Notes: generated by a model not told the origin, from the letters alone. Shown: positions 2,450 to 58,276, numbered from the whole stretch's first letter. The stretch is 63,714 bases of DNA, filler included, from Rhabdomonas costata (GCA_019059605.1; 23 parts of 23 records of this genome joined end to end with filler, not necessarily neighbours in it), one strand, 5' to 3'. Numbers and translations are program-made.

Positions 2450-2483
<34 letters not shown>

Positions 2484-7164: not shown

Positions 7165-7652
7165 CTGAGAGGAGGGAGAGAGGCCATGTCTTTGGGGTGC
7201 CTGCTGACAGCGGATGTTAGCAAAGTAGTAGTTAGTTCACCTCGAAGCAGAGAATTTTCGAACATACACTTTCAGAATATGCTTGGGTATAAATAGGCCT
7301 TTGGGGTCAAGGCAATTGGGATGGTGGGCATCACCATCGTGTCTTCGAAATACGTGACTCGTTCGGAAGAAACCGTTCATATCGTTGCCCCTGGACCAAC
7401 AGCTATATGAAATGGAAAATGGGTTCGGGTCCAGTAGCAGTGATTAGTTTTGTTCAATGGGTTCAACTCCTACTCTTCTTGTGTGCTTGTCTACTCCACC
7501 CTGACGTACATCTGCGAGCAAGAGAAGGGCGAGTATGAGGGTGTGTGTGATGCTTGGGTCACGTGATTGAAAAAGCAAGGGCTCACGCCAATCACGATGC
7601 ATTTTTTTTTTGGATTTCAGCTTTCTGAAAGGGAGTGACGAGTGAGCGGCCG

Positions 7653-8227: not shown

Positions 8228-8420
8228 NNNNNNNNNNNNNNNNNNNNNNNNNNNNNNNNNNNNNNNNNNNNTTAATTAATTAANNNNNNNNNNNNNNNNN
8301 NNNNNNNNNNNNNNNNNNNNNNNNNNNCAATTCCTCCTCATTTGAGGCCGGGAACATGAATGAGGAGGGGGGGCAAGTGTGGTTGTGCCAAGTGATTCAT
8401 CCACGGTTATTTTGGCGCAG

Positions 8421-10347: not shown

Positions 10348-10512
10348 GTGTGGTGGTCTCAATCCCGATCTTTTTTCTTATCGTCTTTCTGTGTGTGTGG
10401 TTGGAAAGGAGAAACCTGCTTTCCATTGCCCACGCTCTACCACAGCACAGGGGGAGACCATCCTAGGAAACGGTAATGTGATTAAAGGGTGGACTTACTC
10501 TCTTTGCGCAGT

Positions 10513-10514
10513 GG

Positions 10515-10557
<43 letters not shown>
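10513..10557. repeat. (GGCA)n tetranucleotide microsatellite, representative of many intronic microsatellites
   Basis: Read directly. Others: (CT)n ~2453-2480; (TG)n ~14685-14711, ~20645-20672, ~41374-41398, ~56546-56564; (CA)n ~60623-60646; (CTGT/CCTG)n ~27521-27561. Confidence 0.95.
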
Positions 10558-12753
10558 CTACACTCCTCTACTTAAAGACGCCCATCCGAGACCAGCAGCA
10601 GGAACATAGGGCATAAAGACTTCAGATCGATCAGAGTACCATAGACTAATTTGTCAATTTCTAATTTGCGGCCAACCTCGGATAGAAATCCGGACTCTCA
10701 GGGAGGGAGGAAGGCCTACAACAAACTCCCGACTCTCAAGGAAGGTGACGGTGTGCCAGCATATGTATCTCTCCGTTTTCAAGAATCCCACAGCAAAGAG
10801 CAACCGGAAAAAGTCTGCTCGAAGAACCCATATTGGCCCCAGCGGCACCACCATAAATTGCCTTCAGGACAGATTGAGGTTCGAGCATGCAGGCCTTTAC
10901 CCTTATACCCTTGTATATTTTCAGCAGCCCCGGCCGAAATCTCATTTTCAGGTTGGAAAAGCGCTTGCATGTTAGCGCATAATGTGGATGCCACACAAAC
11001 NNNNNNNNNNNNNNNNNNNNNNNNNNNNNNNNNNNNNNNNNNNNTTAATTAATTAANNNNNNNNNNNNNNNNNNNNNNNNNNNNNNNNNNNNNNNNNNNN
11101 CATCGATGCACCGATCCACGTATTGCAGATGTTTACACCGGGTCAGAGTGATGGCGTGCGCTGTACAGGTGTGCAGGGAAAACCTGTAAACTAGCACCCT
11201 TTGTGCCCACAGCATCCCTCTGATAAAAGCTCCTGTGTCCACTCATTGTTTGTTCCCATCTGGGGCTGAGCTACGCATGACCTCATGTGATTATTTTGTT
11301 ATTTTTATTTTTTTTTTGAAAAATTTTAAAATCGATATTTCTTGGGATTCTTCGAATTTTGAGAGTATGATAAGAATCGGCTTTGGCGAAACGGGAGTCA
11401 ATACTCCCCTTGCCATGCTCAGCCCCCTGACCCTGAGGTTTATTAAAACTACTTCGAGAGACACAGCAGATCGGGCCCAAGAATGTCCTCCACAAAATGC
11501 CCCGACAAACTAGACAACCAAGCCCCCTCGAACAAGAGCGCGCAAAAAAACGGCACACAATTCTCCGCACCTCAATCACTATCCGGTGGAGCTTGCCCGT
11601 GTTCCCAATGCTACAGAAAAAGAGAGAAAAAAACATAGATGGGAGAACGGGGGGAACCAGTCGGAGAGTCGTGGCAGAGCAATAAACACCAGCTCCAACT
11701 TATGCAATGGGCGCGGAAGACTTTTGCGATCACCGAGATCAAATGTGTGTGGTACCTTTTTTGGTGTTATATCAACTTACTTGTTTTATTGTCGTTGGGC
11801 CCATCAGCATCAGCCGGCGGATTTGTACGGACGCTATAACACTGGAATAAAAGCTCATTCAGCCCCTTCCTTCCTCAATCTCCCCGCCGGACTTGCCAAA
11901 CTCAATTTGCGCCTTCTCATTGTAAACGGACCCTTGGAATCAGATCAATTTCTCGTCCTTCCCTTCTCGATCTCTATCTCTCCACATCAGGTTTCCTTCC
12001 GAATCATCCCAACTTCCACTCATCATCCCACCACTGGTCTTGTGCGCAGTTTTCTGAACTTATGCAAATAATGCACCTCACTGTGTGCTGCTCGCGCGCG
12101 TACTCACTTGGAACCCTGCGCGACCTGACATCGAGGAAGACCGTCGTTCGGGGGCCTGGCAAGTAGTGTCTTAAGTACTGCTTGCCGCCATCGATGCTCA
12201 GGTTGACCAGCTCACTGGAGGCAAGGTTGCCTGCGGAGACAAAGCGCCGCTGGTCCCCTTCCGTCCATGTAGCCATGCCAGCAGGCAGGGGCAGGTGGCG
12301 CGGTGTACGCCTCCCCCCAGCTGCTTCCCTTCGAACGGCTCAGAAGGTTCGGAAACTGTTCTATGATACGTTGGGCTGGCGGGAGGCAGAATCTGTCCAC
12401 ACTAGCAAAAGCACGCCCCAACACGTCAAAACACCCAAAGCAACAAAACCTTCATCCAAATGCATCAAAAAGCAGGCAGTTTATCGGTCGAAAGGTTCCT
12501 ATAGGTTCAAAAGGGGGTGGGAGGATAAAATTTCCGATGTCCAGGATCTGGCCCGCCGCGAAGCGCAGCGGAGCTGTAGAGCGAGGGCATTGGGCGTGTT
12601 TCCGAGGAGAGGGTATTGGTCTCACAGGGTTTGGTGGCGATGCACTTGCCCCAAGATCAGGTTATTTGGTCGTGCACGCAAAAAAAAAAGGACACGGGGC
12701 GGGGACCCCTGCACCCCCCCTCACCGCGCGAATGCCATTTTCGGCCTATAAAC

Positions 12754-19328: not shown

Positions 19329-19578
19329 NNNNNNNNNNNNNNNNNNNNNNNNNNNNNNNNNNNNNNNNNNNNTTAATTAATTAANNNNNNNNNNNNNNNN
19401 NNNNNNNNNNNNNNNNNNNNNNNNNNNNGTTGTTGTTTTGCTGAGACGAGTTGCTTGACCGCTTATTAATCTCGGGTCTAAGTCTAGGCCAAGACATGAA
19501 GGTCCATTTTTTTTGGCCTTTCGACCTTGAAGGGTCCCGGGGTGGTTCATTTTCTTTCTCGGACCCCTTATCTCACAG

Positions 19579-20640
19579 GTCTGCGATGGCACCTCCGGCA
19601 GCTGTCCTGGGGACGCGCTCGTGAAGCGTTCCATCGTCTGCAGGGACGTGGCGGGATCCTGCGATGTCGCTGGTCTCGTTGCTCACTGGCCCCACATGCT
19701 CAACCACCCACACCCACACACCCACTTCACGCAAACACGCGGCATTTCAACCCAATTGCCTTTCACGCGGTGACGGCGAAGGACGAGATTCTTAGTGGGT
19801 AGACACACATACACACACAAACACACTCTCCCACCTACCCAGCCACACTCTGTTACAACATACCATCTCGCCCACACAGAGGTTTGTGACGGGGTGAGCA
19901 CCAACTGCCCTGCCGACGTCAAGGTGGGCAATGGCACTGCTTGCCGTCCTTCAGCTGGGGACTGTGACATTGAGGAGGTCTGCGATGGCAAATCCAATCA
20001 GTGCCCCGCGGATACTCTGCGGGGCTCTGACTTTACCTGCCACCCCTCTGCAGGTATTCGCTCATTGTGCGCCTGAAATAGGACGGCTTCCATACCGGAC
20101 CCTGGGGGGGGGGGAACCGAGCCTCGGAAGACTCCTTTTGACCTTTCACCTTACACACCTTACACAAGCGGGCACACAGTAAAACGCCCTACACCTAAGT
20201 GCCAAGAGGCTCCGTGAAAATGCACCAGTGGCCAGTACAAAAATTCGACCCACCCTCCCCATTGTGGTCAATGTTGGACTGGAAACTATGATGTTCCTTC
20301 CGCCCTTGCACTTTTTTGAGTCCAACACACTGACATGCCGGAAGGGGGTGACGAGATACTGAATTATTGTCCATCTTACGCCCCTTTTTATTTTTATTTC
20401 GAGGTTTGCCAGGTGTTGACGGAACGATGATCGGTGTTGTGGTGGTGGTGGGGAGTGATGGCGTTTTCACACCATCGCAGGCGTTAGGTCCGCGCAGAGT
20501 CGCTCGCACGCCGCGTTTTTGCGGCTTTTTGAGGCACGGGTTTCCCAGCGCACTCACACGCACCATGTATTTTTTTCAGCCACAGGACATGCCACCTCTC
20601 CCTTTCGTTCGTATCGTACCTTCTTTGCCACACCTGGTGT

Positions 20641-20672
<32 letters not shown>

Positions 20673-21034
20673 ACATGGGGGTTAAGCCAACCCTGCGTGA
20701 CCAGACTCAGGGACAAGACACCATGGGCCTACAAGGCTGTGAGGCCCGATGGGCCGATGAAAAATCCCCCATTGAACGTGGGAATGACTGAGGTGATTGG
20801 TTTCAATTTCTTTCTCAGGTTCGTGCGATCTAGCTGAGACCTGTGATGGGACGCACCCAACCTGCCCCCCNNNNNNNNNNNNNNNNNNNNNNNNNNNNNN
20901 NNNNNNNNNNNNNNNNNNNNNNNNNNNNTTCAATTTCTTTCTCAGGTTCGTGCGATCTAGCTGAGACCTGTGATGGGACGCACCCAACCTGCCCCCCTGA
21001 CGTTCTTCGCTCCAGTGGCTATATCTGCCTTGCG
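19579..21034 (+). CDS. Protein with tandem disintegrin-like cysteine-rich repeats; internal exons 19579-19672, 19880-20053, 20819/20946-21034
   Basis: A unit of ~32 aa (ExCDGxSxxCPxD.......Cxxx.GxCDxx) occurs four times. Phase-consistent GT-AG introns. Confidence 0.85.
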
Positions 21035-22234
21035 GTGTGCTGCAAAGCGATTCTGCATATTTCTTCAGTCTTGGGATTTTGGCGTTCGGGGACATGGTGG
21101 CGAACAAGATCTCAAATTCCATCCTGCCTGAACGGGGAGGGGGGGGGCGTTGACGTTTTCGCATGCAAGTGATGGAACGGTCAGGTGTTTTTCGAATCTC
21201 AAGCAAAGGGCAAGTTAACAGCATGCCCGAACCGACATCGCAAAAATAGATGCATTTAGAGGTGTTGACATTGATTACTTAAACCCACGCGCGATCGTTT
21301 TGCACTTCTAAAGGGAGCATCGCCCACACCATGGAACTTCCCCAGCCCACCCGCCGACACATGCTATTTTTTTTTTGCCCATTTTTGCCTATTTGGGCTA
21401 TTTTTTACCTATTTTTTTTTTGGCTAATTTTGAGCATCTTATGGTCGTCATCTTATGATCTTATCGTCTTAAGGTCAAAGTTGCTGCTTTGGGGGGGGGC
21501 CACCCCTTCACAAGAATGGTGCAAGAAGGAATTTCAGGGGAGAACTATGCCTTGGGGCCGTGCCAAAACTTTAGGTATTTGCCATTTTCCACTTTGGAGA
21601 GGATCCTTTTAAACTGCGTTTTGTCATTTAAATAGGATCTTCTTAAAATGCTTAAAGTGCAAAATGTGGCTTTTTTTTTGCCTGCGGCGTCGCTCCGCTC
21701 GGTGCTAACCACCAAAGTTACCCCGATACCGTTCTTCCTCCTTTGCAGCTGTCGAGACGCCGTGAAAAGGCAAATCCAAAACCATTTCGGCCTTAAACTG
21801 GAGCATAACCGCGGTTGCGGATGGCGGAATTTGTACCGTGGAAGTTTTTTTTAGCAACTGGAAACTTTGTTGTCCTGAAGCCTTGGCTTCAGCTGGGCTT
21901 CAGGTGGAAAATTTCTCGATGCAGACTCGGGACCCCCTGCTGGGATGAATAGGGTACTCACACAAATCGGGGGATTGGCCAACCGTCCAGATCGTGAGAT
22001 TACGCCGTTAAGGCTGTGCAAGCATATGACCGCCATGCCCCCAAATTCTCCAGGACCCTCATAAAACTATACGGTTCGGATGTGTGTGGAGCACCCCTCC
22101 CTCCACTCTCTCACACACCTGCCACACACCCNNNNNNNNNNNNNNNNNNNNNNNNNNNNNNNNNNNNNNNNNNNNTTAATTAATTAANNNNNNNNNNNNN
22201 NNNNNNNNNNNNNNNNNNNNNNNNNNNNNNNTGT

Positions 22235-26461: not shown

Positions 26462-28058
26462 GTGTGCGTCCCATTGCACTCCCTGCGCTCAGTTTCCTCA
26501 GGATTCTGCAGCAGTGGAACGTGCCATTTGCATTGAAGGACAGCATTGGTTTGTCACGTGGTTTTGTTGAGGACGTGAGTTTCGTCACAGAATCGCTGAG
26601 TTAAGCTGGAACTTCATCAAACCCCCGGAATGAACCGTATTTTTATTAATTTATTTTTAATCATTCGTATTACAGTCTTGCGGTGCTTTTGTCGTTATTG
26701 AGCAGGGGAAGAGACACAGCTCCCGTTCTCCGTTTTAAATATCCAGCTCTGCGGTCCTTCGCTGGTGGTGAAACGAACGTTCGAAGGTGTTGGCGTGTTT
26801 TTCAAACAATCGCACCTCCATGCTGCTGGCGTCCTCTTTCTACGATCTCAGGGAACTGCTCTACCTCGAGACCTGCAAATCTGCCTTTTCAGATTTCCCT
26901 GGCACATGCGGTGTCTTTTTATTAATGTTTTTCATTCTCGCTGCTGTTTTGTTTTCTGGTCCACTGCGTGTTTTTGTTGGGTTGCTGACAACGTTGCCTT
27001 TTTTCGTTTTATTTTACAAGTTTTTCAATCTGCTCCGAACCTTCCTATCAACGACGTTTTTCTTTTGCTCAAATGACCTCAGTGATGTTCGTTCAGTGAT
27101 AATCGTTGCTGTATTCACAGGGTTGACATACTCATGTTTTAGCATGGCATGCGATAAAGAAGGTTGCACATCGTTATAACCAGGTATGGTTTGCTGTTTC
27201 CCCAGCGAAACAGAGGGAGGGGGGGGGGCGACTTGTCTCTGTTTCAAGCGTGTCGATCGAAACAATGATTTTTAGTTTGGTGCAAAAACCTCTGCCTTGA
27301 CACGCTCTGTGACATTGCCGCATTAAGTTACCACTATTCGGTTGGAAGAAAGCATGAAAAAAAAAGGTAACAACATTGGAGCAAACGCAAGGTCCAGCAC
27401 TGAAATTAAGGCACAGCGCAGCAGCACATTTGGTAAGGTATGAAATTCGCAATTTTCTTTTTTTTAATTCGTTTTCTTTTCAACGTTATCATAATTCAAG
27501 GGTTCGGGATGGTTGGTAATGCCTGCCTGTCTGTCTGTCTGTCTGTCTGCCTGCCTGCCTGCAACACTCAGGCGATTCAGAGGACTCTGCAGACGTTCTT
27601 CCACCGGCCGCAGTGGCAATACGTGCGGGACCTTCTCCGCCAGCGCCCTGAGCTTCGCGCCCTTCACCCCCCAACCNNNNNNNNNNNNNNNNNNNNNNNN
27701 NNNNNNNNNNNNNNNNNNNNTTAATTAATTAANNNNNNNNNNNNNNNNNNNNNNNNNNNNNNNNNNNNNNNNNNNNTGGGGGCGCCCATTCGATGGTTTA
27801 GGGGTTTGCCCTGCGTCGTCTACTTGGGATGGGTTGGAGGGCGAGCGCGGTTGTATGTGTTTCATAATTGACTGTAACCTTGAGTCGTTTCTTTGAGGTT
27901 GCTTGCACAGGCTTTCCTCTGGACACAGCCACCAGTAAAACCGTGAAGCTAACGCCTTTCACATATTCGGTGTGGTGGTGGTCTGTGTTCGGTGTGCTGT
28001 GGATGTGTGTTGGTGTGAGCGGCTGTGTGAGCGCCTTTGTGACGGGTGATCTGCGCAG

Positions 28059-30244
28059 GTGGCCGGAACAACAAGAAGCGGCTGTCCACGGTGGAGCGGT
28101 ACGATCCGCTTACTCGGGAGTGGAGCGCCCTGCCCCCAATGAAGACCATCCGGAGGTTCGTGTGGGGCGGTACTTTGCGTACAATGGACGTGCACGCTTG
28201 GGCCAAAATTTGCAGGCCCCCAGCGGGAACGCTGAGCTGCACATGATATGGGACTCGTGAAGCCAACGGATGTCACGCGTCCTCTTTTTCATGTGTGTGG
28301 TCATATGACAAGCTTGGGTGAACCTCTCCTCCGCTCTCTCTCTCTCTCTTCCTTTTGTGAGTTTTTTCGGATTGACGAGTTCGATTGATTTTTTCGGATA
28401 ATTTTTGGAAACGCTGTTTGCCATATCCCTTTTCTTCGTTTCGCTCCGTTGCCGTCGTATGAGCGTTTTGAACAGACTTTGCCACTATGTGTGTATTTGC
28501 CTGGTTCTATTTGCCTCGCAGTGCGCCCGCCGTGGCGGGGTTTCTGGGGTGCCTGTATGTCTTCGGGGGCTACGACGGGAAGGTGGAGCACCGCACCATT
28601 GAGAAGTTCGACACCCTGACCGGGCAGTGGTGCAGCCCCAGCTCCGCGGGGATGCCCGTGGAGGCCTGCGAGGTCTCCGCGGTGGTGCTGGGGCCGGACA
28701 TCTACATCATCGTATGCCCTGCGCCGCATCCCACCCCGCTTCTCCGTGTCCACCTGTCCACCGCAGTGAGCAGAGCCGTTCGCCGTAGGCTGCGGCCTGT
28801 CCGACTCACTTTCCCAGCCAAATGGAGCCCCGCCACCCCTACCCTCCGAACCCCATTCACCCACACCCGCTCACAGGAAGGTATGGAGTGACCCGCGATG
28901 CTTGCGTTTTGATCGGTTTGACCGAAATGGAATGAATCCGGTTGCACACCAAACGGTTTGCACCATTGCTGATTGTGGGTTGTGGCTTTTTTGGTGTGCT
29001 TGTTTTTGGGGCTCGTTCTCGTTGCTTTGGTCTCCCCCTGCGTGTGCGGTTGTGCAGCACACTTCAGCAAGCACCACAGAAGGGAGATAAGGCGGCATTG
29101 GAACGCCCGGCTGTGTGGTTGTGGTTGAGATGTTGAGATCCGAAAGTGTGACGTTATTCTTGGGGGCTGGAGGGGTGGGGTGCATTTCATCGGTGTTCCT
29201 TCCCGAAGGCGGGTTTGTATTTTCACGTGTGAAACTTCGGTTTAGGTCCAAGGCATCGCAGCCCCCCACTCCACCCCGCACTCTAGCTTCTAGCTGAAGT
29301 GAGGCCGCGCGCTGAGCACTGGCTCATCCGGAGACCTTGTCAACAAAGGGAGCTTCGATTTCTGATGAAATGAGCTGGCATAGACTGGGTAAGTGGACAG
29401 AAGTGGATCTGATGCCTGTGGTATGTATAGCCGGCAACGCAGCGCAGGATATCCGAATTCCCCCCACCTTTTTGCATGGTAGCCGTCGCTCACTGCAATC
29501 CCTCTTATGCCTTTGATTTGTGGTGGGGATCAGTGGGGTGGGGGGCTTTCGTTTTCCAGGGCGGCACGCAGTCCCGGTACTCGCAGCAGGAGAACGTGCT
29601 GGCGGTGTGCCAGAAATACACCCCGGCGGAGGATCGCTGGACCGTCGTCAGCCCCATGAAGCACAAGCGGATGGTGTGTGCGTGCATGCGTGCTTGTGTG
29701 ATTCTGGTGCCGTGGAAAGGCAAGCCAAAAATCTCTCACCCCCCCCCCCCTTCCCCAAAAAGTGAGGCCGCGGCCTGGCCCAGGTGATTTTTTTGCCCTT
29801 CTTCTTGAGAAGAAGCATTGTCTTCTGATGATGTTTGCGGAGAACGTGACGAGCATAAATTGACTGCGCCTCTCCCCCTCCGCTGAAGCCCGTGCCTGAC
29901 GAGCCAACAGAGGGCATTAAGAATTGTGTGTCCTTCGACAAAGAGGACGCATTCTGGCTGTTACTGTTGATCCCATTGGCGGGCTAGAGCAAGGAGTGGC
30001 GGCATGTTAGCGAGTATAGCCTGAGCGCGCATCCACTGTACCTGTGCATGGTGTTTTGGCTGAAGCCGTTCCTCTTCTTTTTGTGCAGTGTCCAGCGGCA
30101 GCCGTGCTGCACGGGAAGATCTATGTCATTGGGGGCAGCAACGGGGTGGCCAGCCTGGACGTGGTGGAAGTGTACGACCCCCGCACGGACAGCTGGCAAT
30201 CCTCCCCACCGATGAACATCTGCCGCTCCAACGCCACAGCCTGC
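28059..30244 (+). CDS. Kelch-repeat protein, internal exons 28059-28155, 28522-28711, 29560-29673, 30089-30244
   Basis: Four kelch repeats (YVxGG...VExYDP...W...PM...R). All introns are GT-AG and phase-consistent. Confidence 0.95.
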
Positions 30245-30546
30245 GTACGCTACCGCCCCCCCCCCCGGTCCCGACACTCCTCCCCTCTTCCTTCCGTCCT
30301 TTCTGAGAAATCCTATTTTTTAAGACGTGGTGTGGTGTTTCTGAGGACAATAGATGTCCTTCAGTCCCATTGGTCATGCCTCCAGCTTCTGGACAAGGCC
30401 AGGCATATTCGCCACACGAAAAATAAAAAATGAGCCTCACGACATCNNNNNNNNNNNNNNNNNNNNNNNNNNNNNNNNNNNNNNNNNNNNTTAATTAATT
30501 AANNNNNNNNNNNNNNNNNNNNNNNNNNNNNNNNNNNNNNNNNNNN

Positions 30547-41650: not shown

Positions 41651-44274
41651 GGGGTGGGGGGATGTGGTTCTTCAGTCCTCCAAAAGACCCGCAGGGCCGC
41701 CCGGCGTCTCCCGTGGAGTCCTGGCTCACCGAGGCGGTGTTTAACGACCTCTTCCCCAAGGCCAACATTGGGTGGGGCCCCAACCCCTGCCTCCCCTACA
41801 GCTACCAGAGCTTTGTGGTCGCGCTGCGGTACTTCCCAAGCTTTGGCTCGGGCCTGCCCGCGGCGACCGCGGACCCCACAGGGCGGCCCTTCCCTGTTGC
41901 GTACACCCCGGCACAGGCCGCCCGGCGCACCCTAGCGGCGTTCTTCGCGCATGCCATTCAAGGTCTCTCTTCTTCACTCTCTGTTGCTTTGTTACGTGTG
42001 TGTTCTTCCGCAGGGAAGAGCGTGCTAGTTCCGAGGCTTCCCGTGCTGAGACAGTCAAAGTTATTCCCTTGCCCAAAAATGTATTCACCACACAGTTCAA
42101 AATATTCAAAATATTGCTTGGAAAGTCTTGAAACTTAGAAAGCTGTCAACAGCAGGGTTGCTCGGTTCCTGTTGGAATACAGATGGGATTCTGAGCCAGC
42201 GATGTAACAAAACAGCCCACAGCACTGACTGACAGCCTCCAGTGGTTGGGCGTCCTATCACCGTCTCACACGGGACCTAAGGGAATAACCATAGCGCATG
42301 GTACAACCCAGTGAAAGGAACCCACGTGCAGTAGCAGTGGCGATAGTGGTAGTGGTCATGGCGTATGTTATGCCCGTTGATATTAATCACCACACAGGTT
42401 AGTCTATCTAACACACCGGTCAACTGCGCCAAAAACTACCCCACATACAGCACTCCACTCCAGCATTGGGTGGAAGGATGTGCGTATGTATAGTGGTAGT
42501 TATAGCAGTGGTAATCCCCTGCATAACACCCGTGGTAGGTTGGGGTAACATGCATTCACCAAACTATGACCAGCAGCAGCCAACACCCAAACCTAAACTC
42601 AAGGGTTCCTCATGCGTACGGCCGGACGGATGAAAGGACCGAAGTGACACGTGGGAGCAATCGCGCTCAAAGTCGTTGCTTTCCGCTTCAAACCATCCAT
42701 TGTCAGGACACCTGCACTCGCTTTCATTCGCCATTTCCATGAGCCTGTGGGGTTTTAACGAGCCGGCTCTCACTTTCGACAACTTTGCCGTACTTACCGG
42801 GAATAAGGTTTTGTGGCTCCGATGACGGCGGTGTTTGTTGCTTTGCGTACTCACACGCCCTCGCACGGACATGCCCGCACCCCCAGAGACCGGGGAGAAT
42901 GATGCCAACCTGTACACCATCATGGCCAACCCCACGGAGGCCGACGACTGCTTCTACCGGGGCGGGCTCTTCAACTGGGTGGAGGGGGGCCCCAGCAGCC
43001 TGTTCCTGCCCCACCAGCCCAGCTCAATCGCAGACGCTGAGACGTGCACCGCCGCGGGCAAGTACTGTGATCTCACCTCCGGCTACTTCTTTCCCTGCTC
43101 CACGGCCACCAGCGGGACATGGTTCCAGGCATGGCAACCTGCCTTATGCAAGGGATCCCCGTCCCGGCACCTCTGGCGCACTCACTCGCCGTGCTTTTTT
43201 CCTTTCCATTACTTCTTTTTTTGTGTTCCATTGTCCATTTTGCGACTGAAACAGGCAATGTCTCTGTTGGTCAGTTGGTATCCTGTGAACGAAAATCTCC
43301 CGCTTTGTAGTGAATGTGCGCGAGTCTGCGTCTGTGCTGCGATAGGATGAGTAGGACGCTGTGAGGTCGGAACGCGGTCTCCCCCTCTCTCCTCCTTTCA
43401 ATCCCTTCCATAGGGGTGCTACTTCGGCCGCGGGGCGGTGCAGTTGTCGTACAATTTCAACTACGGGCTATTCAACCGTTGGCTGAACCAGAATGGGGTG
43501 ACCCACAACGGTAACCCGGTGGACCTGCTCCAGGTGCTCTTCCTTTCCGCTGGTTGTTGGTTAGCCCATCGCTCGTGCAAAACCCCACCTAACAATAAAA
43601 AACAAATACGAAGATATAGAAGCAGAAACAGGCATTGTTATGACCTAAAGAGAGTGGCATTCCTTCTGCCTGCCCAACCCTTTTTTTGCCTGGCGTTCGA
43701 TACCCCCCCCCCCTTTTTTTTGCGATTTGCGATGTGTTGTCTCCTCCCTACTCGGCTATCAGGAGCCCAATTTGCTTCTGACCAAGACTGACCCCCCGCT
43801 TGCGCTGATGGCCTCGATCTGGTTCTTCGTCACCCCGCAGGTGGCCAGAGTTGTCGTACAATCCCTCCCTTCTTTTGACCCATTTCGATGGTCTCAGTGG
43901 TCCCTGTGGACTCTTTTCCCTACTCTTGGGCTATTCATCGGTATTCATATGCAGAAGGGCTGCGCACAATGAGAAACTGAATTGCATTCTGGAAATATTA
44001 AGTGCTTCTGTCAGGTACTGGACACCGAGCGTTAAGCGGAACCTGTATTGGGGGGGGGGCGTTTGTGTGCATCTGAAATGAACGGGCAGCTCTCGCTGAA
44101 CCTCTCCTTGTAAGATAATATGCACACATCCCGTGCCTTCGGTTTCAAACCTAGATGCAATCGGTAAATGTGGGTCCCTGTGTGGCGGTGTGCAGCCCCC
44201 CAAGCCTGCAATGGCGGATGTCATTTCCGGGCGATGGGTTCCCTCCGCCGCCAACCAGCAGAAGGGCTTCTTTG
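41651..44274 (+). CDS. Glycoside hydrolase family 19 chitinase (nematode-type subgroup), partial; exons ~41651-41962, 42887-43128, 43414-43533, 43763-43840, 44196-44274
   Basis: PYSYQSFVVALRYFPSFG, LAAFFAHAIQ|ETG (catalytic Glu), NWVEGG (second Glu), GCYFGRGAVQLSYNFNYG, ASIWFFVTPQ|PPKPAM. Phases are consistent given one GC-AG intron. Confidence 0.93.
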
Positions 44275-45509
44275 GTACGCGTCACGTTTGTTTGTTTGTT
44301 GACTCTTTGGAACTCCTCTCTGCNNNNNNNNNNNNNNNNNNNNNNNNNNNNNNNNNNNNNNNNNNNNTTAATTAATTAANNNNNNNNNNNNNNNNNNNNN
44401 NNNNNNNNNNNNNNNNNNNNNNNGGGTTTGTGGGGTTTTGTTTGCTTGTTCGCTTGTTTGCCTGTTTTCTGTTCCACGTGTTCGCATCTTCTTCGAGTTC
44501 CACCGCGGTCCCTTCCCTTTCCACTCGCGTATTCTTTGTTTCTTGTGAGTCCGCTATTAGCGAGCGGAATTAGAGATCGCCTTGGCGGATTCCCGCCTTT
44601 TCCCTTTCCGGTCTTTGGCATTGACCAAGCTCGCAATGAAGGGCCCGAGGTGCGACGACCCAAAGCGAGCTTTCAAAAGAAAAAGACTAGCCCCCACAAG
44701 AAATCAGTTTTGGAATGCCTCTTGCATCTTGCTGGTTTTTGTCAGACAACAGGACAGAAATATTTGAAGGCGGAGGCCCCACGTTGGCGGCGAGGCAGCT
44801 CCCCGGCGCCGCCGGAGCTGGGGACGGTGGGGGAATGTCTTCTACTCCCGGGTTTGTTTTGAACGTTCCTGACGCAGGTGTTTTTTCTCGACGTCTATAA
44901 AAGACCATACCGTTCCCGATCACCTTCTCAGTTGAGATGGCGGGAGCAAAAAGACGATAGCGACCCAAAATGCTGATGGCGTTCGCCATCGTCTTTTGAA
45001 AGACGATAGCAAACGCTGTACCAAGCCATTTGAGTGCGGACTTCCCAGCATTCCCAGCGCCGTGTCACAAGAGTTCGGTTAGCACAGGCTCGGCTCAGAG
45101 GAAGCGCGCAAAAGGAAAAGGAAAAGGAGGAATGGGGTGAGGACTATTTTTTCTTTCAGAATTCAAAGTTAAATTTAAGCGACAACGCTCCCCCCGCTCC
45201 CCAGAGAAAACGAGCTACACGGCAGGGGTGTCGCCCTTGCAGAACAGCCAGTTCCCGCTTCCAGCGGCCAGGCGAGAGGGATCTGCCTCCTCTCAATTGT
45301 AAACAATCGTAAATAGTATTTGAACACGCCGCAGCAAAAGCTATGTAAAACACCCATTGGGAAAAGGCCTCGCTCACCTGAGTATTGCTCGCTTTTCTAT
45401 TGCCGAGTTGCCCGGGTTTGTCAAAATGAACTTCACAAATTCCTTGGCTATCTTGTAGCCCTAGACCTAGTAGCCCCAGCCATTCATGGTTGGTTGCAGG
45501 CGGCCACGT

Positions 45510-45639: not shown

Positions 45640-47709
45640 GGGGCACTAAGGGGTGAAAGGTCGGGACTCCTAACCCCAAGGACCGGCCACGCAGCGTTTC
45701 GGGGGGGCCTGCTGTATACAAAGTAAAAGACCCCAGGCCTGCTTCGGCTTAGCTCTCCACTTGTAAGTACTATTAAACGTTTCGCATTAAAAAAACTACA
45801 CAAAAAGACAGCATTCGCCTGTTTCCCATGATTTACGAACAGCACAACTTCCTTTTACTTGCCCAATTGCACGAGCAAAAGTTCGGTCAAAGTGTACCCA
45901 CAAAGGCAGGGCAACCCATCGCACTGAACGGACCTTTGTAGAGCAGCTCATTGCGCTGACCATCATCGGCATCATCTATTTTCCGAGGTAGTGAAGAAGA
46001 ACTGACATGAGCGTCCATGTGAAATATAGCTACAACCAAAGGTCAAGGAGGAGATAAGTTTTCGAGACGAATGTCATGTCATCCTAATTAACGGTTTATG
46101 ATATATATTATTATAATATATATTTGACTGAATTTTGAATTTTTTGTCAATTGTAGATGTTTGCAGATGGGCTCATTCAAAACAGCATTTTCCTCACCAC
46201 AACTAGGTTCTATGCTTTGCAGAAGTGTCGTTTTGGTTAAAAAAAAAAGTTGGTATTTCAATTAAAACAAGATCGAGACAGAACTGTGTATACAAAACAC
46301 CACCAAAATACCGGAGCTTCTTCTTACCCATTGACCTTTCAACTGGGCGTTGTTCTTAGAAAATGCAATTGAACTTTTTGGAGGCTTTGGTTTGCCGCAT
46401 AGCATAGCATTGAAACGTTGATGTTTTCGATCCGGTCATGGCATTGAACCTTGGACGGTTTTCGTTGGATTAAATTGACCTTCAAGCTCGTGTGGGCGCA
46501 GTCCCGCTGGACTCCCCCAGGTGTGGTGACTCACCCCCGTCCGCGCTCGTTTGCTCCTCGACGCCATGCACCCCAGCCGATTGCTGCGCTGGTGTGCCGT
46601 GAGCCCCGTGTGTGCGCGTTTTTTGGCCGAAGGAGCCGCTTTTATGGGCTGAAGGGGGCAAAAAAGAAACACAGCAATAATAGGTCCAACCTCCTTTTCC
46701 ACAAAAGTGACCAAAGTGCCGAGTTTTTTCTGTCATCATCATGTGGTTCCGGTCACTGGTCACATGAACAGCTTTGTGACTTCGTTGGGCACAGAAAACT
46801 GCTGAAATCATCGCCCAAACGCGTCCGTTCGGCTCCTTTCGCTACGCGATGCCTACCCTGTGCCTCGATGTGGCAGGTGCGAAGCCCCCCCTCGAAGAAT
46901 TCACGCATTCGGCAGGACTTCAATGCCCCTGCAATGTTGCGGGGGGGGGTGCTGTTTGCGAATGTTTCCGCGGTCTAGATAGTGGTGGCGGGAGTTCTCA
47001 ATCACATTACCGGTAATACACGCGCAAAGGGAGAATTTTTTTTGCTTTACTTTAAAGCACACGATTGGGATAATAGAGTGGTCTCAAAACAAAACNNNNN
47101 NNNNNNNNNNNNNNNNNNNNNNNNNNNNNNNNNNNNNNNTTAATTAATTAANNNNNNNNNNNNNNNNNNNNNNNNNNNNNNNNNNNNNNNNNNNNTGGAC
47201 ATGCTAAAAAAGGTAAATGCAACATCAACACTACGTCTCGCAACTTCCTGGAGGGGCCTCCACTTATCCAACACTTGCAACGTTGGATACATGCCTTTCC
47301 CGAAAGTCTGCTGAAGACGAAGATCAAGGCACTGAACAAGTCCTTCCCAAGGCAAAAAAAACAAAGCGAAGAAAAGACAATCGCCACAGAGCACTTCAAA
47401 GCTCCACGAGCGCCATGAAATCACCATTTCAAAAACAAACATGTGCGGCAAAAGTACAAAGTAGACACAACTCAACCCGAGGAATTCCCTCTGAACGTGG
47501 ATGTAAACCCCTTTCGGACATGACGAGGGAGATACGCACACAGCGCACACTAAAAAGGGAGAGGAGGAAATCCCGTCTCCCAGCAAACGCTGCGACTTAC
47601 TGCTGAGCAAAACTCCTTAAAAAGAAGCATCTTGCTTTTTGAAATGAGTCACAGCAACAGGGAATGACACCAAGTGTAAACCTGACAGGGGAATCAAGGG
47701 TGCCGAATC

Positions 47710-49429
47710 TTACGGGTTGAACTGTACTATTGGAGGGGGAGATTCCACCGTGGGTCCCTCCTCAGTGTACTCCGGGTCATGTACCTGCGGGGCGTCCGAT
47801 TCCGAATGCTTCCTCGGAAATTCCGCTGAAGGCATCTCCCTCATTGTCTGCTTTGGCACCCCAGAAATGTCATCATTATTTTGTGTGGGCCGGGTTCCTT
47901 CTTCCAGCTGCTCTGCGGCACGGACGTGGTTGTCCGTGCTGACGTCACCACGCCTTCCAATCTTGTACCACGGCATGCTGAAGAGCTGATCCATGCTCTC
48001 AAGGCTGGTTCCTGCGGTCTCTGGGACGAAGAAGAAGACCCATATCCCGCCAATGATGGTAACTGCCGCGAAGAGCCAGAAAGTACCATGGGGTGAGATG
48101 CCGCCTGCCCCAAAGGGCAGCAGCATATTTGGAAAGGCACGTGAACTTCCATACTGGTTGGCGAAATGGATGGTCATCGACAGCGAGGTGCACAGGGCAC
48201 GAATACGCAGCGGGAACAGCTCGGCCGTGAGCAAGTACTGCATGGAATTCCACCCCAGAGCCCAACCAAAGCCACAAATGAAAATCATGGCGATCGCACC
48301 CTGGGAAGGTCCCAGCTCGGTCGGGCTGAGCTTGTATGAGGAGTCCACGCCAAGCTGGGGAACTATTGTCAGGAAGATGGCCATATAGACCATGGACACA
48401 GCTTGCAGAGAGATGCCCACGAGGAGCGAGAGTTTGCGACCGACTACGTCAACCAAAAAGAGCGCACAAAGCAGGCCAGCGAAAAACTTGAGCAACCCAA
48501 AAACGGCAGTTACCAGCAAGGACTCATTGTTGCCAGATATGCCCAGCAGCTTGAACAGGTCAACGGCATAGATGGTAATGGAGCCCGCACCTGACCATTG
48601 CGCCAAAATATGCGCAAACACGGTAAGATGCAGCCGGTACAGGTTGTTTCGCACGGTGAAGGTTTGCTTCAAAACGCCCAACCAGCCATCGGCGGCGGAG
48701 GCCTCCATTTCAGCGTTGTGGCCCTGCACGATGGCTGCCATCTCGCTCGCCACATACGCGTGGTCAAACGGAAGTTTCCGAAGCCACGACATAGCAGCCG
48801 CAGCCTCTTCCAGGCGGCCACATTTGACAAAGTACCGTGGCGACTCGCACTGGAAAAATGAGAGCACAAAAATCAGCCCCGCAAACATGATGTGTAGGCT
48901 CGTGGGCACCATCCAACGAAGATGAGAGGTATCGCCCAAATTCAGTTCACAGCCGTAGTTGGTGAAGTAGGCCAGTACGATGCCGATGTAAACGAAGCCG
49001 GTAAAGAAACAGGTACACAGACCGCGAATGCTGGAAGGCGCTATTTCAGCGATGTACACAGGGCCCACCACAGTCGTCTGGCCGATGCCCAGGCCCGCAA
49101 TAAAACGCCCAGCGTACATCATTGCTAGGTTGCTGTTGGACCCAAGGAAGAGGGCGATGCCAAGGACCCAGAGAGCACAGAGCTGGCGCGTGGCCCAGAG
49201 ACGCCCGATCCGATCGCAAAAGAGAAACGCCAGTAAGGCGCCGCCCACCGACCCGATGAGCACCATAGAGGACATAGTGGCCTTGATGTTTGTGTGCTCA
49301 ATCCTGCTGTACGAGCTCAGGTGTATTTCTCTCTGGAAGTCTTCGCTCATGAAAACCCCACTGATGAGGCCTTCGTCAATGCCGCGGGAAGCGCCCATCA
49401 GAGCAAAGGACAGCACAGCGAACCACAAT
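47710..49429 (-). CDS. MFS sugar-porter family transporter, fungal quinate-permease-like; single 1.7-kb exon, true start unresolved
   Basis: 595-aa ORF with about 12 TM segments and sugar-porter motifs DRIGR, GRFIAGLGIG, YIAEIAP..IRG, ESPRY, QWSG, VDVVGRK, ELFPLRIRA and PETAGTSLE. A pyrimidine-rich AG acceptor lies at 49430-49431, just before LWFAV. Confidence 0.95.
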
Positions 49430-52400
49430 CTGAAGTTAAACAGTAGATAAAAGTAAACGTAGAGTAAAAGTAAACTGTAGATACGAGCAATACACAACTA
49501 TGCCCTTCAAATCCAGCATTACAACACAAATTCCAAAGCATACTTTTCGAACTGGGAAATATCACCTGCGACGAAAAACGCCAACGGTAGAGTACAGAGC
49601 AAAAGAAAGTTAGGCAATAAGTTCAACGGGGCACACGCAAACTTGCAAACCTCGCTGCCGGTGCACTGGAATCCACCCGACAGCATCCACCATTGCCTGC
49701 AAACATGGGCCCGCAGGCGGGGCGGAAAGTCTAGCAAGGGCTTGATGTCTCGTGTCGCCGGCCCGCACAGCCGAACCACGGCCACCCCGCACAAATCTTC
49801 CGAACATTGCACCAAGGCGTTGATGAAGTGGGTTGTCCCAATCATCACAGCTACCAACACAAACCCNNNNNNNNNNNNNNNNNNNNNNNNNNNNNNNNNN
49901 NNNNNNNNNNTTAATTAATTAANNNNNNNNNNNNNNNNNNNNNNNNNNNNNNNNNNNNNNNNNNNNGGTTTGTGGTGGGTAACTCCAAACCACAACACTA
50001 GTTTTGGTCTCGGAGGGCTATTCAAGCCACTGGGGAGCAGGAAGTAGTGCAGAAAGCGTGCATGGTGCCACTGCGAGTACCCGGGGCATGCGTGGTTTTC
50101 CGGGTTTCATTGTTATTTTCGTTTTATTCAGCCCCCAGGGTAAGTTGATTCCAATGGAACGAATGATCTGATGTGCGTGTGGTCATAAAGCGGGTAAAGT
50201 ATGCCTCCCCTCCCCTCCCACTCTTCCTGAGAATCGTTCGCTTCTGTCAGCTGAGATCACCACGATCAGGGAATTTGGGAACGGAGAAAAAAGAAAAGTT
50301 GCAGAATACCACAGTTTCCATATCCGATTTGTGAGGTGATAGGCTTGGCACGCTCCAATCGTCCTCAAAGCGCAACGCTCGCCCCCCCCCCGGTCCAACA
50401 GAGCACTCAACAAAACAGAGCCACCGCCACCATCCCAGCGAACACACCCGGGAAGACCATGTCGTCACCATGTATGAGGCGCTGGCGGGAATCACCGGGA
50501 GCTTTTTCGGCGAGCACTTGGGGCTTTGAGACGACCCCCCCGGCTTCTCTGAGGCACCCGCAGGCAGCGGTCTTATGGAGAAGCAGTCCGGCACGGGCAC
50601 GCGGCCGTTCCCGCTGCCCGCAGCGGCACTGGGAGGCTGAGGGACCAGCATTGTATTGCCGGTCTGGGGCCGAGGGTGCCACATGCAGAACACCACAGAC
50701 CCCCCGCTGTCCGGACGACCCAACAACCGAAGGCAAAAACCCGTACCCGCAAAAGTTTAACGTTTAACACCCCTCCTTATCCGATCTCTCTCAGGAATCA
50801 AACCGCGCCACTTCGCATTTGACGAAAAACTAATGAAAAAGTGGACAAAAATCAAGCTGTCGGATGCAAAGCCTCGCCAAACGCTGGTTTCATGTGTTCA
50901 TGTGAAAGAAGACTGTGTTGCTGATTGCTGAGTGCACGAGATAAAGGAGTTTCGCGGGCGATTGGGCGATTGGGTAAGCGAAGATGGTCGGACGTTGGGT
51001 TTTTTGAATAAGACCGACTGGTTGATCGAAACTCTGGTGGAGGTGTCCCTCATTTTACATAGACAGTGCGGGTTTCATCTCCCCCCCCCCTTGTTGCGAC
51101 AAGCATCACAACCGTACGAACTCAGCTTAAATTCATTCATTGAATGAAGCAAATAAGTGAAATGTGATCAACGGATCAACGGCAGGTGGCCCTAGCCAAT
51201 GTAAGAATGTGGACCGCGTTATCTCAAAGCCTGCCACGTACACAAGCACAGGAACATACCGCAGAGTGGGGTTGGGACCGACAACGCAGACACGCCGGGC
51301 AACGGCAGGGTTGCATTAGCAGAAATACTACACGAGCAAAAAGAAAGCACAGCCAAAGGCACTGCACCGAAAACAAGGAAACACCAACGCTCTCGGACGG
51401 CGGAGGGTTCCGCCATAGGAACCGGCAGGAACCATTTCACTTTGCGGAAAAAGCTAAGCTACTCTTCGGAACTGATTTTCATTCCATCAGATCTGGAAGA
51501 TGGAACAATGCAACGGGTTTCCATGGCGAATATTGACCTTCTGTAATAATGCTGTCCCAGCGCAACCGCCACGTTCCAAAAACACCGGTATCACCAACGT
51601 TTAGCGCTCCCTCCCCCAATTCGATTTCAGTAATATCTCCTGTTTACAAAATAAAAAGGGTTGCCGAACTTGACAATATGCTTTGTTTGGGGGGACAAGG
51701 TGTACCACAGCAAACGGCATTCACGTGCAAGGCCATCTCAGCAAGGAAAAACCACACGTGCAGGGAGTGGAGCGGATTCAACAGGCAACGGGGAAATGGT
51801 GAGGCTTCGCACCGAACAAAAGAAGATCTATCCACATTCGCCGATAAATCGATTTGTGTGCCGTCGTAGTTAAAGCCACACATCTGGGAATGGCCAGAAT
51901 GACCGCGATGCATCTCATTCAGGAGGAGCCGAGGCATAAAAACCTTCCTCCACAGCACCGATGAGATAATTAAAAACTAAAGGAGCCCACAACGTTAACT
52001 AGGGGCGGGACGAGTTCAATGATGACCACACAAACTTCCACTGTCCACCTTTCCATTCCCAGAGAGACATGCAGGATCAACCAGATCAAACTGCCTGATT
52101 TGAAAAGGAGACGAACCAAAAAGAAACATGGCACGCAGGAGCGGAGGATGCCAAGATACAGGATTGGTTTCCTGGGAAACCACCGAGACACGGAAAGCAA
52201 AAAAATGAGCAAAAACCACAGAAGAAAAGAGAAGACGAATGTATCATGACACCCCCCTGCAGCAGCCGCCGCTGCAGCAGAAGAATGGGATTGATGAGCA
52301 CCGGTCCCCATTCCAGGCAGCAGCCTCGACATGGTGGGCTGGAAAAGCCCGAGTACAGAACACCAATCCAACGAAACGCATCCAATAATGAATGTGTGGA

Positions 52401-55402: not shown

Positions 55403-56324
55403 CACACNNNNNNNNNNNNNNNNNNNNNNNNNNNNNNNNNNNNNNNNNNNNTTAATTAATTAANNNNNNNNNNNNNNNNNNNNNNNNNNNNNNNNNNNNN
55501 NNNNNNNCGGACCGGAGACCTAACATTGACCTCAGAACTCGAGATAGAGTGACGGGTTGGGGCTCATATTTGTTGGTATGGTAGTACTCCTGAGATGAAC
55601 TGCCCGGAGAACTTGCTGACGTGTGTGTTTGTGTGTGTGTGACGACGACGACGATGACGACGATGTATGAGTAACGACCGCTACACGCCTCCAAGTTAGA
55701 TAGCGCCTAAACGGCAGCGAGGGGGTCCTGAGGGGATCACCATACAGCAGCCCGAAACAACACCCGGACCCGGGCATGGTGTTCAAAGGCAAGCGAGGCG
55801 AAACAAGCAGTTACCAAGAAGCGATGAACCCTCGCAAACGAGTTTCGATGACGCAATGCAGGACGCGAATACCCAAGCCCGCATCTCTCTCACGCACAAA
55901 CTCCTCCCCACGTGATGAGCATGATAGAAACCCTGTGAGCCCTGTCTTTTGGCTGTGTGCTTCGTTTTTGTGGTTGCGTCTTTGTTGCCCCCGGTAAAAG
56001 CCGAAGTTTTCAGAGAAAAGTAAATTATGGTTGCGCCAAGCTGAGCAAACCAAGTTCCCCCCACATGAGCAGTCATTGTTGATAACCCGTCAGATTTTAC
56101 ACTGAAGAAGTTCCTCCGCGAACTTTTCGAGAGATGCTCCAGAAGATGAGTGAACGAAGAAGAAGTGAAGAAGCTTCCTTCCTTCCTTCCTTCCTTCCTT
56201 CCCGTTCTCGAAGCATCAAGGCGAGAACGTCCGCCCTGAGCAAGGTCGAGACCAGCACATACTTCAGATCGGGAGTGCCCCTGTGGCCCCTGTGGCCTGT
56301 GGCCTCCTGTGCTGCTGCTCGCAG

Positions 56325-57521
56325 GCCTTCCGTGACAAGGACAGCGCGATGTACGTCTTTGTGGTGTCGACGTACGGCAGCGGGGAGATGCCGCAGCGCG
56401 CGGCGAAGTTCTTCCGGTCCCTCGAGAGCACTTCCCCGGACCTCACTGGGGTGCGGTACAGCGTGTTTGGGCTGGGCAACTCCAGCTTCGAGGAGTTCAA
56501 CAACGCCAGCAAGACCCTGGACAGGACCCTGGAGCGGCTCAAGGCGTGTGTGTGTGTGTGTGTGTCTGTGTGCGGCTCACTGTCCGAGACTTTGTCTCGT
56601 GGGTATGTAGAGTTGGCCACAAAGCAGAGGCCGACCCCAGAGGTGCAAAGCCCTGCCTTCGCTGTCGGCTCTTTGCGAGTTCCGGCAAGATGTGTGTTTT
56701 GTTGTGATTTGTGTTTGAGCTCAATGAACGACATCTGTTCCCATTCCCTGGCTTGAGCCTCGGCTCCTCAGGATTTTTGCGGCGGGTGGCGGTGGTCGTG
56801 TGCAGGCCTCGAGGATCCACCCCCTTGGGCTGGGCGACGAGCGCGCCAGCGAGGGCCACCAGTCCGCCCTGGAGCCGTGGATGCGCAGCCTATGGGGCAC
56901 TGTGGGCTCGACGTCGGGCCAGGGGTCGATCAGTTTGCCGTGCACCGTGGAGGTGGGGCTTCATCTCTTTATCTCGCCCTCTGTACTCTCTCTACTGCTA
57001 CTCCCTTCAGCAGACTCCTCTGCTACGCCTGTTAACCCAACTGCAAGCCTTCACCAGTTCGATTGGGATTCAAGGTTGATGTGTATGTGCTGTTTGGTGA
57101 CGGCGTCGTAGCAAATAAATGGAACAAAACCCCCTTCAAAAGCTGTCAGCTGATACGCAACATCTGCTGCTTTTCCGTGGAACCTTCGAATTTTGTCTTT
57201 CTTTGCTGGCCACGTCTCTCTTCTGTGCTTCGCTCTTCTCGCAAGAGTACGATTGTGGTTGTGGCCGTGTTGCAGATCAGTGTGGCGCCGGCCTCGCAGG
57301 CCAGCCAGGGCGTGCCTGTGCCGGAGGGCTTCCAGGCCGTGTCTGTGGTGGGCAGCCGGCTGCTGACCCCGGTGGAGTCGCCTCGGCAGGCGTTCTGCGT
57401 CAGCCTGCGGACGGCGGGGAAGCTGCGGCTTGGGGTGCTGGACCACGTGCTGGTGCAGCCCCACAACAGCCCGGAGCTGGTGCAGCGGATGCTGCGGCGA
57501 CTGGGGCTGCAGGGCAAGCAG
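56325..57521 (+). CDS. Diflavin (CPR/CysJ-type) reductase module: flavodoxin domain plus start of FAD domain; exons 56325-56543, 56806-56952, 57276-57521
   Basis: FVVSTYGSGEMP, YSVFGLGNSSFEEFN, L.ASRIHPLGLGDE...W...LW, and DHVLVQPHNSPELV (compare GDHxxxxPxN). The first intron must be GC-AG to keep frame. Confidence 0.88.
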
Positions 57522-58276
57522 GTGGCTGTTGTGGGTTGGGCCTCTCTTCGCCGGGAGGGAGGGATCGCTTTTCTTCTTGTGTGTGATTGGGTCCTTTTCT
57601 TTGATGCGCATAGGAATGAATGCTAGCATTCTGCAGTGGGATCTTCTTCGACAAAACCTGTAAACTTTTGTGAAGTCTTTCATCGTGTTGTCTTCTTTTT
57701 TTCCGGCTCGCCCCACCGTTGCACGGTGATGTGCTGAAGTTGGGTTGAGGATCCCTGAGCTGGAGAGCTGGAGCAAGGCAGGATTTATCATAAAGTGTGG
57801 GAAGCCAGTGAAAACAGAGAAGGAGGACCAGGGCGTTGTTATCACCAGGAGTACAACTCGAGTCACTTAGTCGGTGAAGCCTGTATGAGGTGGAAGCCTA
57901 CTGAGATCCTGAATCCCGTATCCGGCTCTGCCTGGGATGTCGCCACGCGCTTTTTGGACCTGATACAATGACCAAGATATATGGCATGAGGCAGAAGACG
58001 TTACGAATAGGCGAAAATCCAGAGTAAGGCGAACCCAGAAAGGTGGAGTGGCGTAAAACTGCAGGAAAATCCGCCCCTGGAGTCTCCCATGGACCGCCCA
58101 GCGACAGGGGTGGGAGATCCGCAAAGCTGGAGAATATTCCAAAACCCGCCGGAGGAAGAGAGACCTACACAACAACNNNNNNNNNNNNNNNNNNNNNNNN
58201 NNNNNNNNNNNNNNNNNNNNTTAATTAATTAANNNNNNNNNNNNNNNNNNNNNNNNNNNNNNNNNNNNNNNNNNNN

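Follow-up and report, generated by a model that had tools for sequence, protein, structure and literature searches.

Sugar porters such as STP6, STP10, GlcP, XylE and GLUT3 share a 12-helix fold, and the solved members carry a glucose-binding QQ motif in TM7. In XylE and the STP proteins, protons are coupled by a pair formed of an Asp in TM1 and an Arg in TM4. What does a given porter carry? Names can mislead: GAT-1 of N. crassa, formerly labelled a quinate transporter, carries galacturonate (PMC3933009), an example of how a 'quinate' label can conceal a galacturonate transporter. The group closest to the gene described here, An18g01700 of A. niger and its Pezizomycotina orthologs (e.g. Coniochaeta P0003 and Pyricularia P0055), is likewise automatically labelled 'quinate permease'. 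It is probably an ortholog group different from that of qa-y, GAT-1, QutD and GatA, for which A. niger has the separate genes An08g03850 and An14g04280. In the supplement of PMC5968117, which covers 86 A. niger and 61 characterised transporters, An18g01700 is the sole entry with the two diagnostic motifs (identified through motifs and visual inspection instead of an alignment) and is listed as uncharacterised. The text of PMC5923239 calls it a glucose transporter, referenced in Table S2B to the GatA paper. No transport assay for it was found in a search that took in part of the PMC5307856 supplements.

Transporter genes of fungi have also reached other lineages. Transfer of Jen-like carboxylic acid transporters from fungi to oomycetes is established (PMC6063262). 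It serves as a central example of osmotrophy aided by gene transfer. A 2026 survey of gene transfer among osmotrophs covers four osmotrophic groups, and its main text contains neither 'Euglen' nor 'Rhabdomonas' (PMC13345962). Rhabdomonas costata is a primary osmotrophic euglenid (PMC8219788). Little is known about carbon uptake by such euglenids.

Here we describe a locus suggesting that an osmotrophic euglenid possesses, and transcribes, a sugar-transporter gene from a filamentous fungus. As with the Jen-like genes, a fungal nutrient transporter has been gained by an unrelated osmotroph; the recipient here, however, is a euglenid (Discoba) and a single species, whereas the Jen-like family is kept across oomycetes (PMC6063262). 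The finding would add an unrelated lineage to the recipients of fungus-to-absorber transfer, a process known from water moulds. Being one gene in one species and a known class of event, it extends a pattern and does not overturn it. It offers a full-length expressed fungal porter in a euglenid as a directly testable candidate, and a compact case, open to checking, in which a foreign gene without introns gains splice signals of the host. No prior report of the transfer was found in the literature searched, which included few subscription journals; the main text of PMC8219788 contains 'quinate' nowhere and 'fung' once, and the transfer is absent from six of its supplements as well. A resident fungal porter with a putative role in scavenging and a putative second copy is the explanation that fits best overall, and we consider it probable.

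The window analysed, 63,714 nucleotides with its filler, consists of 23 unlinked contigs of about 2.7 kb each, joined with N-TTAATTAATTAA-N spacers. They come from assembly G000, which is very fragmented (97 Mb in 104,289 contigs). The porter gene sits alone on contig G000:C2408 (47196-49866, 2671 bp), on which no second gene was recognised. Since the contigs are unlinked, the remaining window gives no linkage or synteny for it.

A sugar porter in one long exon

The main exon (47710-49429, minus strand) encodes a sugar porter from codon 27/28 of a 599-residue protein to the stop. It lies in a stop-free frame of 595 codons (47710-49497, minus strand), and the longest frame in the window's other 23 N-free segments has 309 codons. 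The initial annotation had singled it out as the longest exon of the window, and it does lie in the longest open frame; long exons are not unique to it in the genome, where another PF00083 gene (L012) has a frame of 409 codons. The translation contains all the motifs quoted in that annotation and matches PF00083 over the full-length profile (E 6e-78, 263 bits against a cut-off of 22.3) as well as TIGR00879 (239.9 bits against 237.8). The product is thus a sugar porter (MFS), with 12 predicted transmembrane helices in addition to intracellular helices. In an AlphaFold2 model (pTM 0.73) it resembles GLUT3, STP6 and STP10 (Foldseek E ~1e-16), with TM-scores by target of 0.81-0.87 to these and XylE. 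A hydropathy scan of the protein gave only six peaks above 1.5, and the topology therefore rests on the predicted model. Identity to STP6, STP10, GlcP, XylE and GLUT3 is just 20-23%, and the QQ motif of TM7 reads AQ in the euglenid protein.

The protein ends in an acidic, proline-rich tail (47713-47946, minus strand; residues 522-599) that is lineage-specific and predicted to be disordered, the model being disordered over 539-599. This extended tail had been noticed from the sequence and is borne out by the comparison: the protein has 599 residues against 549-573 in 119 fungal-clade proteins, and its last 78 residues hold 16 D/E, 6 K/R and 11 P. Compared with the An18g01700 group, the tail is about 40 residues longer. 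Searching for further carriers with the tail returned the EukProt record labelled Rhabdomonas costata alone among 15 candidates, and no second euglenid carrier was found there or among the best 120 protein matches listed. A single RNA contig covers the coding sequence together with the 3' UTR (47354-47709, minus strand), whose 4-mer composition is host-like.

Fungal ancestry

The best protein match is Rhabdomonas costata RCo007909 in EukProt (599 residues, 99% identical), whose N-terminus is the ordinary fungal N-terminus, letter for letter. The next 119 of the best 120 matches listed (1327 lower ones lie beyond these) are 63-71% identical, and the named ones are all Sordariomycetes or Eurotiomycetes. 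Of nine unnamed Logan matches, three that were looked up cluster with such fungi. In a first tree (46 rows, LG+G4) the protein falls inside a 36-row Pezizomycotina clade with support 100/100, and in both trees the An18g01700-type clade, the euglenid protein included, is monophyletic against an Aureobasidium-type sister clade, again at 100/100. The A. niger ortholog is An18g01700 and not An08g03850, which is annotated for quinate catabolism; QutD, qa-y and GAT-1 themselves are not in the alignment. Fungal ancestry, proposed initially from motifs typical of ascomycete transporters, is therefore upheld both by the identities among the matches listed and by the phylogeny, which place the protein in a fungal ortholog clade and not among native protist transporters.

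Which fungus was the donor? A second tree with short outgroups groups the protein with Sordariomycetes at 98/96. AU tests, resting like the trees on the LG+G4 model, did not reject placement as sister to the fungal core (p 0.18) or placement with the Eurotiomycetes (p 0.36). On these alignments the ancestry is fungal, the donor probably a Sordariomycete, and the exact donor is not fixed.

The euglenid protein has diverged far from this group. Its terminal branch is 0.51-0.61 in the two trees against a median of 0.16-0.17, three to four times the median. The 34 fungal rows share 71-96% identity among themselves and 66-70% with the euglenid protein; each of these rows has a neighbour at 77-96%, whereas the euglenid protein has no fungal relative above 71%. 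This protein departs from 21 of 281 conserved columns, the fungal median being 0 and the maximum 7. Relative to the An18g01700 group it also lacks an intron at codon 93.

Could the gene be a native euglenid porter that merely resembles fungal ones? The host does have PF00083 genes of its own, some with long open frames. The closest of them reach only 29-30% identity, however, against 66-70% for the fungal orthologs. With this gap, the fungal N-terminus shared letter for letter and the 100/100 placement, a native origin is refuted at present and can practically be dismissed.

A resident gene or a contaminant?

The gene is expressed and spliced, as seen in the X3 contigs (depth 44, with two GT-AG joints) and in the EukProt record; X3 was taken to be RNA on the strength of its splice joints. 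A Pezizomycotina-derived sugar-porter gene that is nuclear-resident and transcribed in R. costata, or in a very near relative, is the reading that we hold with high confidence. It builds on direct observations, namely the fold, the fungal placement, the spliced transcripts and the join to a repeat found elsewhere in the assembly.

How host-like is the surrounding DNA? Composition was scored with a 4-mer model that contrasts 43 host segments with 48 flanks of fungal orthologs (211 host and 191 fungal windows). The 3' flank lies at the 61st percentile of the 211 host windows, a score reached by none of the 191 fungal windows, while the score of the 5' flank is ambiguous, with 12% of host windows below it and 7% of fungal windows reaching it. 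The tetranucleotide check proposed in the initial annotation thus comes out host-like on one side only. A check on the linkage of the flanks ended similarly divided, as the 5' flank is a repeat present on two other contigs and no host gene lies on the contig itself. The contigs with this repeat score 0.006, also ambiguous (21-23% of host windows lower, 5% of fungal windows reaching it), and they are counted as host only by elimination, because the porter contig has no neighbouring gene.

The coding sequence itself is part-way to the host. Its codon-usage score, -0.024, is above all 25 fungal ortholog coding sequences (highest -0.038) and below eight of nine host transporter segments. Of 40 close-clade fungal loci, six were duplicates and eight did not span codon 93. 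Among the 26 left, by hand count, 20 have an intron at codon 93/94, three have other introns only and three are intron-less and possibly cDNA. This intron, found in 20 of the 23 intron-bearing loci, is absent from the euglenid exon. Given its loss, the long branch and the part-way codon usage, the initial suggestion that the transfer was recent finds no support.

Pieces at least 99% identical to the gene occur in two runs from other studies that are labelled as other organisms (X5 and X6). The sequence is therefore not an artefact of one library and exists outside the source sample, although these pieces do not name the carrier organism; their lack of coverage over the 5' flank carries no weight. 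The run comparison covers four of 12 runs (X1, X3, X5 and X6), and the shares of X7-X12 are 0.05-0.18. The JGI metagenomes gave no exact genomic copy. No spliced leader was seen in 30/111 loose 5' letters.

Gene transfer fits these data far better than contamination, which is unlikely. The initial annotation had offered a fungal contaminant contig as an alternative, and an unknown filamentous ascomycete in the culture or the amplification would explain the 63-71% identity along the full length, the place in a fungal clade and the short GT-AG introns, one of them with a CTAAC compatible with fungi. Foreign DNA is moreover present in the assembly (bacterial 23S), and the near-identical pieces in X5 and X6 bear the labels of other organisms. 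Yet where is the rest of such a fungus? A 5.8S search of G000, which scored 40 of 2699 candidates, gave three matches, two of them bacterial 23S ends and the third a divergent eukaryotic 5.8S (180 nt, 53.5 bits) within an rDNA operon, L111 (G000:C37:4765-7465), which is presumably the host's. A fungal 5.8S should score far above 53.5 bits, and no fungal-type 5.8S was found among the candidates scored. PF04082 (Fungal_trans) and PF00172 (Zn2Cys6) had no matches in G000, in a search made without a positive control, and no close paralog of the porter was found, with just four weak paralog matches in 97 Mb. The host-like 3' flank, the shifted codon usage and the missing codon-93 intron also count against a contaminant, as does the want of any fungal relative above 71% when all 34 fungal rows have neighbours at 77-96%. 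For the published R. costata assembly, which G000 may be, the culture is described as monoeukaryotic, with DNA taken from sorted or microdissected cells (PMC8219788). We consider an ascomycete contaminant quite improbable. Still less probable, and very much so, is a chimera of fungal and host DNA made by whole-genome amplification or assembly. The G/T-only, adapter-like tails of contig ends, the strong fragmentation of the assembly and the repetitive junction itself would suit it, but RNA contigs span the junction with two exact GT-AG splices, which is impossible for a DNA amplification chimera, and the host-like 3' UTR is on one RNA contig with the coding sequence.

Two 5' ends and their introns

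At depth 44.4, one X3 contig spans 47354-49429, beyond which it splits into two forms. The major one, at depth 38.4, runs on through 49442 into codons of the fungal N-terminus, whereas the minor form, at depth 5.1, skips 114 nt to a micro-exon and then 85 nt to an upstream exon. The two depths add up (38.4 + 5.1 against 44.4), with the fungal N-terminus present in about 88% of the mRNA. The fork falls on 13 nt of fungal-type coding sequence (49430-49442, minus strand), which are codons 23-27 in the major mRNA and, with a cryptic AG, the end of intron 2 in the minor one; homology to the fungal gene ends at 49442.

All parts of the minor isoform lie on the minus strand. Its intron 2 (49430-49543) has 114 nt, reads GTATGC..CAG and has no CTRAY within 60 nt of its end. 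The micro-exon (49544-49565, 22 nt) lies inside a repeat and is spliced in frame to the main exon. Intron 1 (49566-49650, 85 nt, GTTTGC..CAG), which is also found retained, has a CTAAC whose branch A is 44 nt from the end, and the upstream exon (49651-49856) has an RNA depth of 10.4. The spliced product is open in frame to the normal stop. A further 94 nt of the upstream RNA contig were not found in G000, and the upstream exon had no Pfam family near cut-off in three frames. What had been predicted from the sequence, an AG acceptor at 49430, a 22-nt micro-exon (49565-49544) and short introns, is thus real, but it belongs to the minor isoform only. Likewise, the termini are remodelled, as had been claimed, at the C-tail and at the minor isoform's N-terminus, and not at the N-terminus of the main product, which is the ordinary fungal one.

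Whose splice signals are these? The initial annotation had read the CTAAC as compatible with a fungal contaminant, an argument that proves weak. A CTRAY-type motif was found in 19 of 28 introns of fungal orthologs at 8-39 nt from the end, against 44 nt here; it is missing from the other 9 of 28, so that its absence is not diagnostic. As for donors, 22 of the 28 fungal introns read GTnnGT and none reads GTTTGC or GTATGC, one GTATGC donor called in a fungal locus having been excluded for stops. The euglenid donor consensus is GTGTG, with G at +5, in E. gracilis (PMC11170887). Both donors of the minor isoform match four of the five positions of this E. gracilis consensus. Donors and branch position would lean to the host and do not decide the matter.

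At the break, a tandem filler (49437-49483; 17 bp unit, 2.8 copies, score 71) spans the junction of the truncated gene and a dispersed repeat (49475-49568). Positions 49475-49533 of the latter are identical to the end of G000:C42395 (L007), and 49494-49568 are 79% identical to G000:C38423 (L008). The repeat belongs to a small dispersed family (L007:700-891 and L008:330-640), and sequence homologous to the micro-exon and to its donor region is present in the L008 copy. Beyond 49475, L007 and L008 stay alike, with a gapped score of 28 that was reached in 2 of 500 shuffles, against 16 for the window. An ungapped test of the same continuation gave 11/21, a value reached in 12,808 of 20,000 shuffles, its offset range having missed the gapped match. 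The 5' flank is continuous with the exon in an X1 DNA contig and spliced to it in X3.

The window also differs from the RNA and the EukProt record at five single bases (47951, 48610, 48768, 49134 and 49294, minus strand), all of which change an amino acid. Two of the five affect residues, G126 and Q300, that 119 of 119 fungal-clade proteins have in common, and the RNA shows the conserved letter at all five sites. X5 and X6 carry the RNA-form letters wherever they cover these sites. X1 has the window's letters at three and the RNA's at two, and with letters mixed in this way the copies cannot be phased from contigs.

One gene or two? We lean towards two gene copies or alleles, of which the window holds a 5'-truncated second copy, because the depths add up, the RNA-form letters differ, L007 and L008 stay alike past the break and a filler sits at the junction, and also because none of the close-clade fungal loci has an intron at codons 20-30. 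An intact copy, its 5' end absent from the assembly, would be the source of about 88% of the mRNA, while the window copy would have been broken at codon 23 and, by way of the short tandem filler, fused to a repeat of the host. From that repeat the spliceosome would then have recruited the 22-nt micro-exon, and from former coding sequence a cryptic AG, and these recruited sites would yield the minor in-frame mRNA. The window copy is probably decaying. The same transfer could instead have left a single gene, its N-terminal exon lying beyond the contig end, in which a repeat insertion with a duplication of 13 nt made a new first intron, spliced exactly at the AG at 49430; the micro-exon form would then arise by alternative splicing within the new intron, and a second allele or errors of amplification would account for the five differences. 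This account is possible but doubtful. In its favour, and counting against two copies, the X1 DNA contig 49320-49866 is unbranched at 49442, even if the missing branch could be due to a loose end in X1 at 49360 that resembles an adapter; directly adjoining this contig is another from X1 that carries RNA-type letters at 49134 and 49294. A working AG falls precisely at the end of the shared 13 nt, and no contiguous N-terminus was found in G000, where an intact N-terminal exon was searched for by protein, by degenerate pattern and by RNA loose end. However, a single gene requires an exact 13-nt duplication plus a donor not seen; the repeat cut at 49475 and its patch of tandem filler look more like a repair junction than the end of an intact element; and all five differences alter amino acids, with the RNA having the conserved letter at each.

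Function and substrate

Asp45 in TM1 and Arg135 in TM4 are kept and align with the Asp and Arg of STP6. Residues invariant in fungi are altered elsewhere, e.g. at Q84 and N455 (Q84L, N455S), and the changes at 21 of 281 conserved columns may have shifted specificity. What would such a protein do in a euglenid? For its A. niger ortholog An18g01700, the published expression values consulted are 25-44 with glucose, mannose, fructose, sucrose or maltose and 2000-3600 with rhamnose or galacturonate. They lie at 2300-7600 with the poorly used polysaccharides cellulose, xylan, mannan, galactan, xyloglucan and inulin, stay low, at 48-419, on pectin, rhamnogalacturonan and beet pulp, and rise about 100-fold after hexoses are exhausted. 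By analogy this pattern suggests a scavenger derepressed by starvation and is not proof of a substrate.

Judged from the retained Asp45 and Arg135, and from an A. niger ortholog that is off while good sugars are present and on when carbon is poor, the euglenid protein would be a plasma-membrane proton symporter, scavenging a dissolved monosaccharide or sugar acid from plant decay. Such a scavenger would be useful to a sediment osmotroph. The name 'quinate permease' given to it initially is an automatic database label for an ortholog group that is uncharacterised; the protein is likely a proton-coupled scavenger of sugars or sugar acids rather than a true quinate permease. A uronic or other sugar acid is a serious candidate for the substrate, though short of an even chance, and a hexose, deoxyhexose or polyol at low concentration is an equally serious one. 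Quinate itself is improbable, to the same degree as any other substrate. A type II dehydroquinase was not found in G000, which is weak evidence given the incomplete assembly and a control that was positive in 8 of 14 prokaryotes.

Taken together, these strands allow a broader reading, which we put forward as speculation. Primary osmotrophic euglenids may be further recipients on the route from fungi to osmotrophs. Rhabdomonas would have taken a starvation-induced sugar/sugar-acid/H+ symporter from a Sordariomycete by way of an intron-less intermediate, and its specificity would have changed (Q84L, N455S and others). A second copy would have been caught while it picks up host exons and introns from a repeat, so that its in-frame protein begins with a new N-terminus.

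Other features of the assembly

At many contig ends in the window there are tails of G/T only or C/A only, which resemble adapters used in amplification. Two contigs of the assembly, L112 (G000:C55209) and L113 (G000:C5062), are bacterial 23S rRNA contigs, one of them with two tRNAs, and the assembly therefore contains bacterial DNA. Elsewhere in the window, an intron-split gene (41651-44323, plus strand) has ORF pieces that we take to be a family 19 chitinase with a Cys-rich insert, and 19429-22131 (plus strand) holds multiple Cys-rich exons, presumably disintegrin-like repeats. Four fragments are rich in introns; we assume from their motifs a Na+/H+ antiporter at 1-2678, a PIF1-type helicase at 8328-11000, a kelch-repeat protein at 27777-30446 and a flavodoxin-domain reductase at 55508-58176. 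Long open frames occur outside the window too: among 20 consecutive contigs taken as a composition control, L106, L092 and L096 (G000:C2315, C2301 and C2305) have stop-free frames of 454, 396 and 344 codons. L012 (G000:C17995:1-1369), the PF00083 gene with the 409-codon frame and presumably phosphate-transporter-like, has paralogs, L011 and L013, that appear interrupted. It is possibly a retrocopy, and its codon usage is the least host-like among the host segments.
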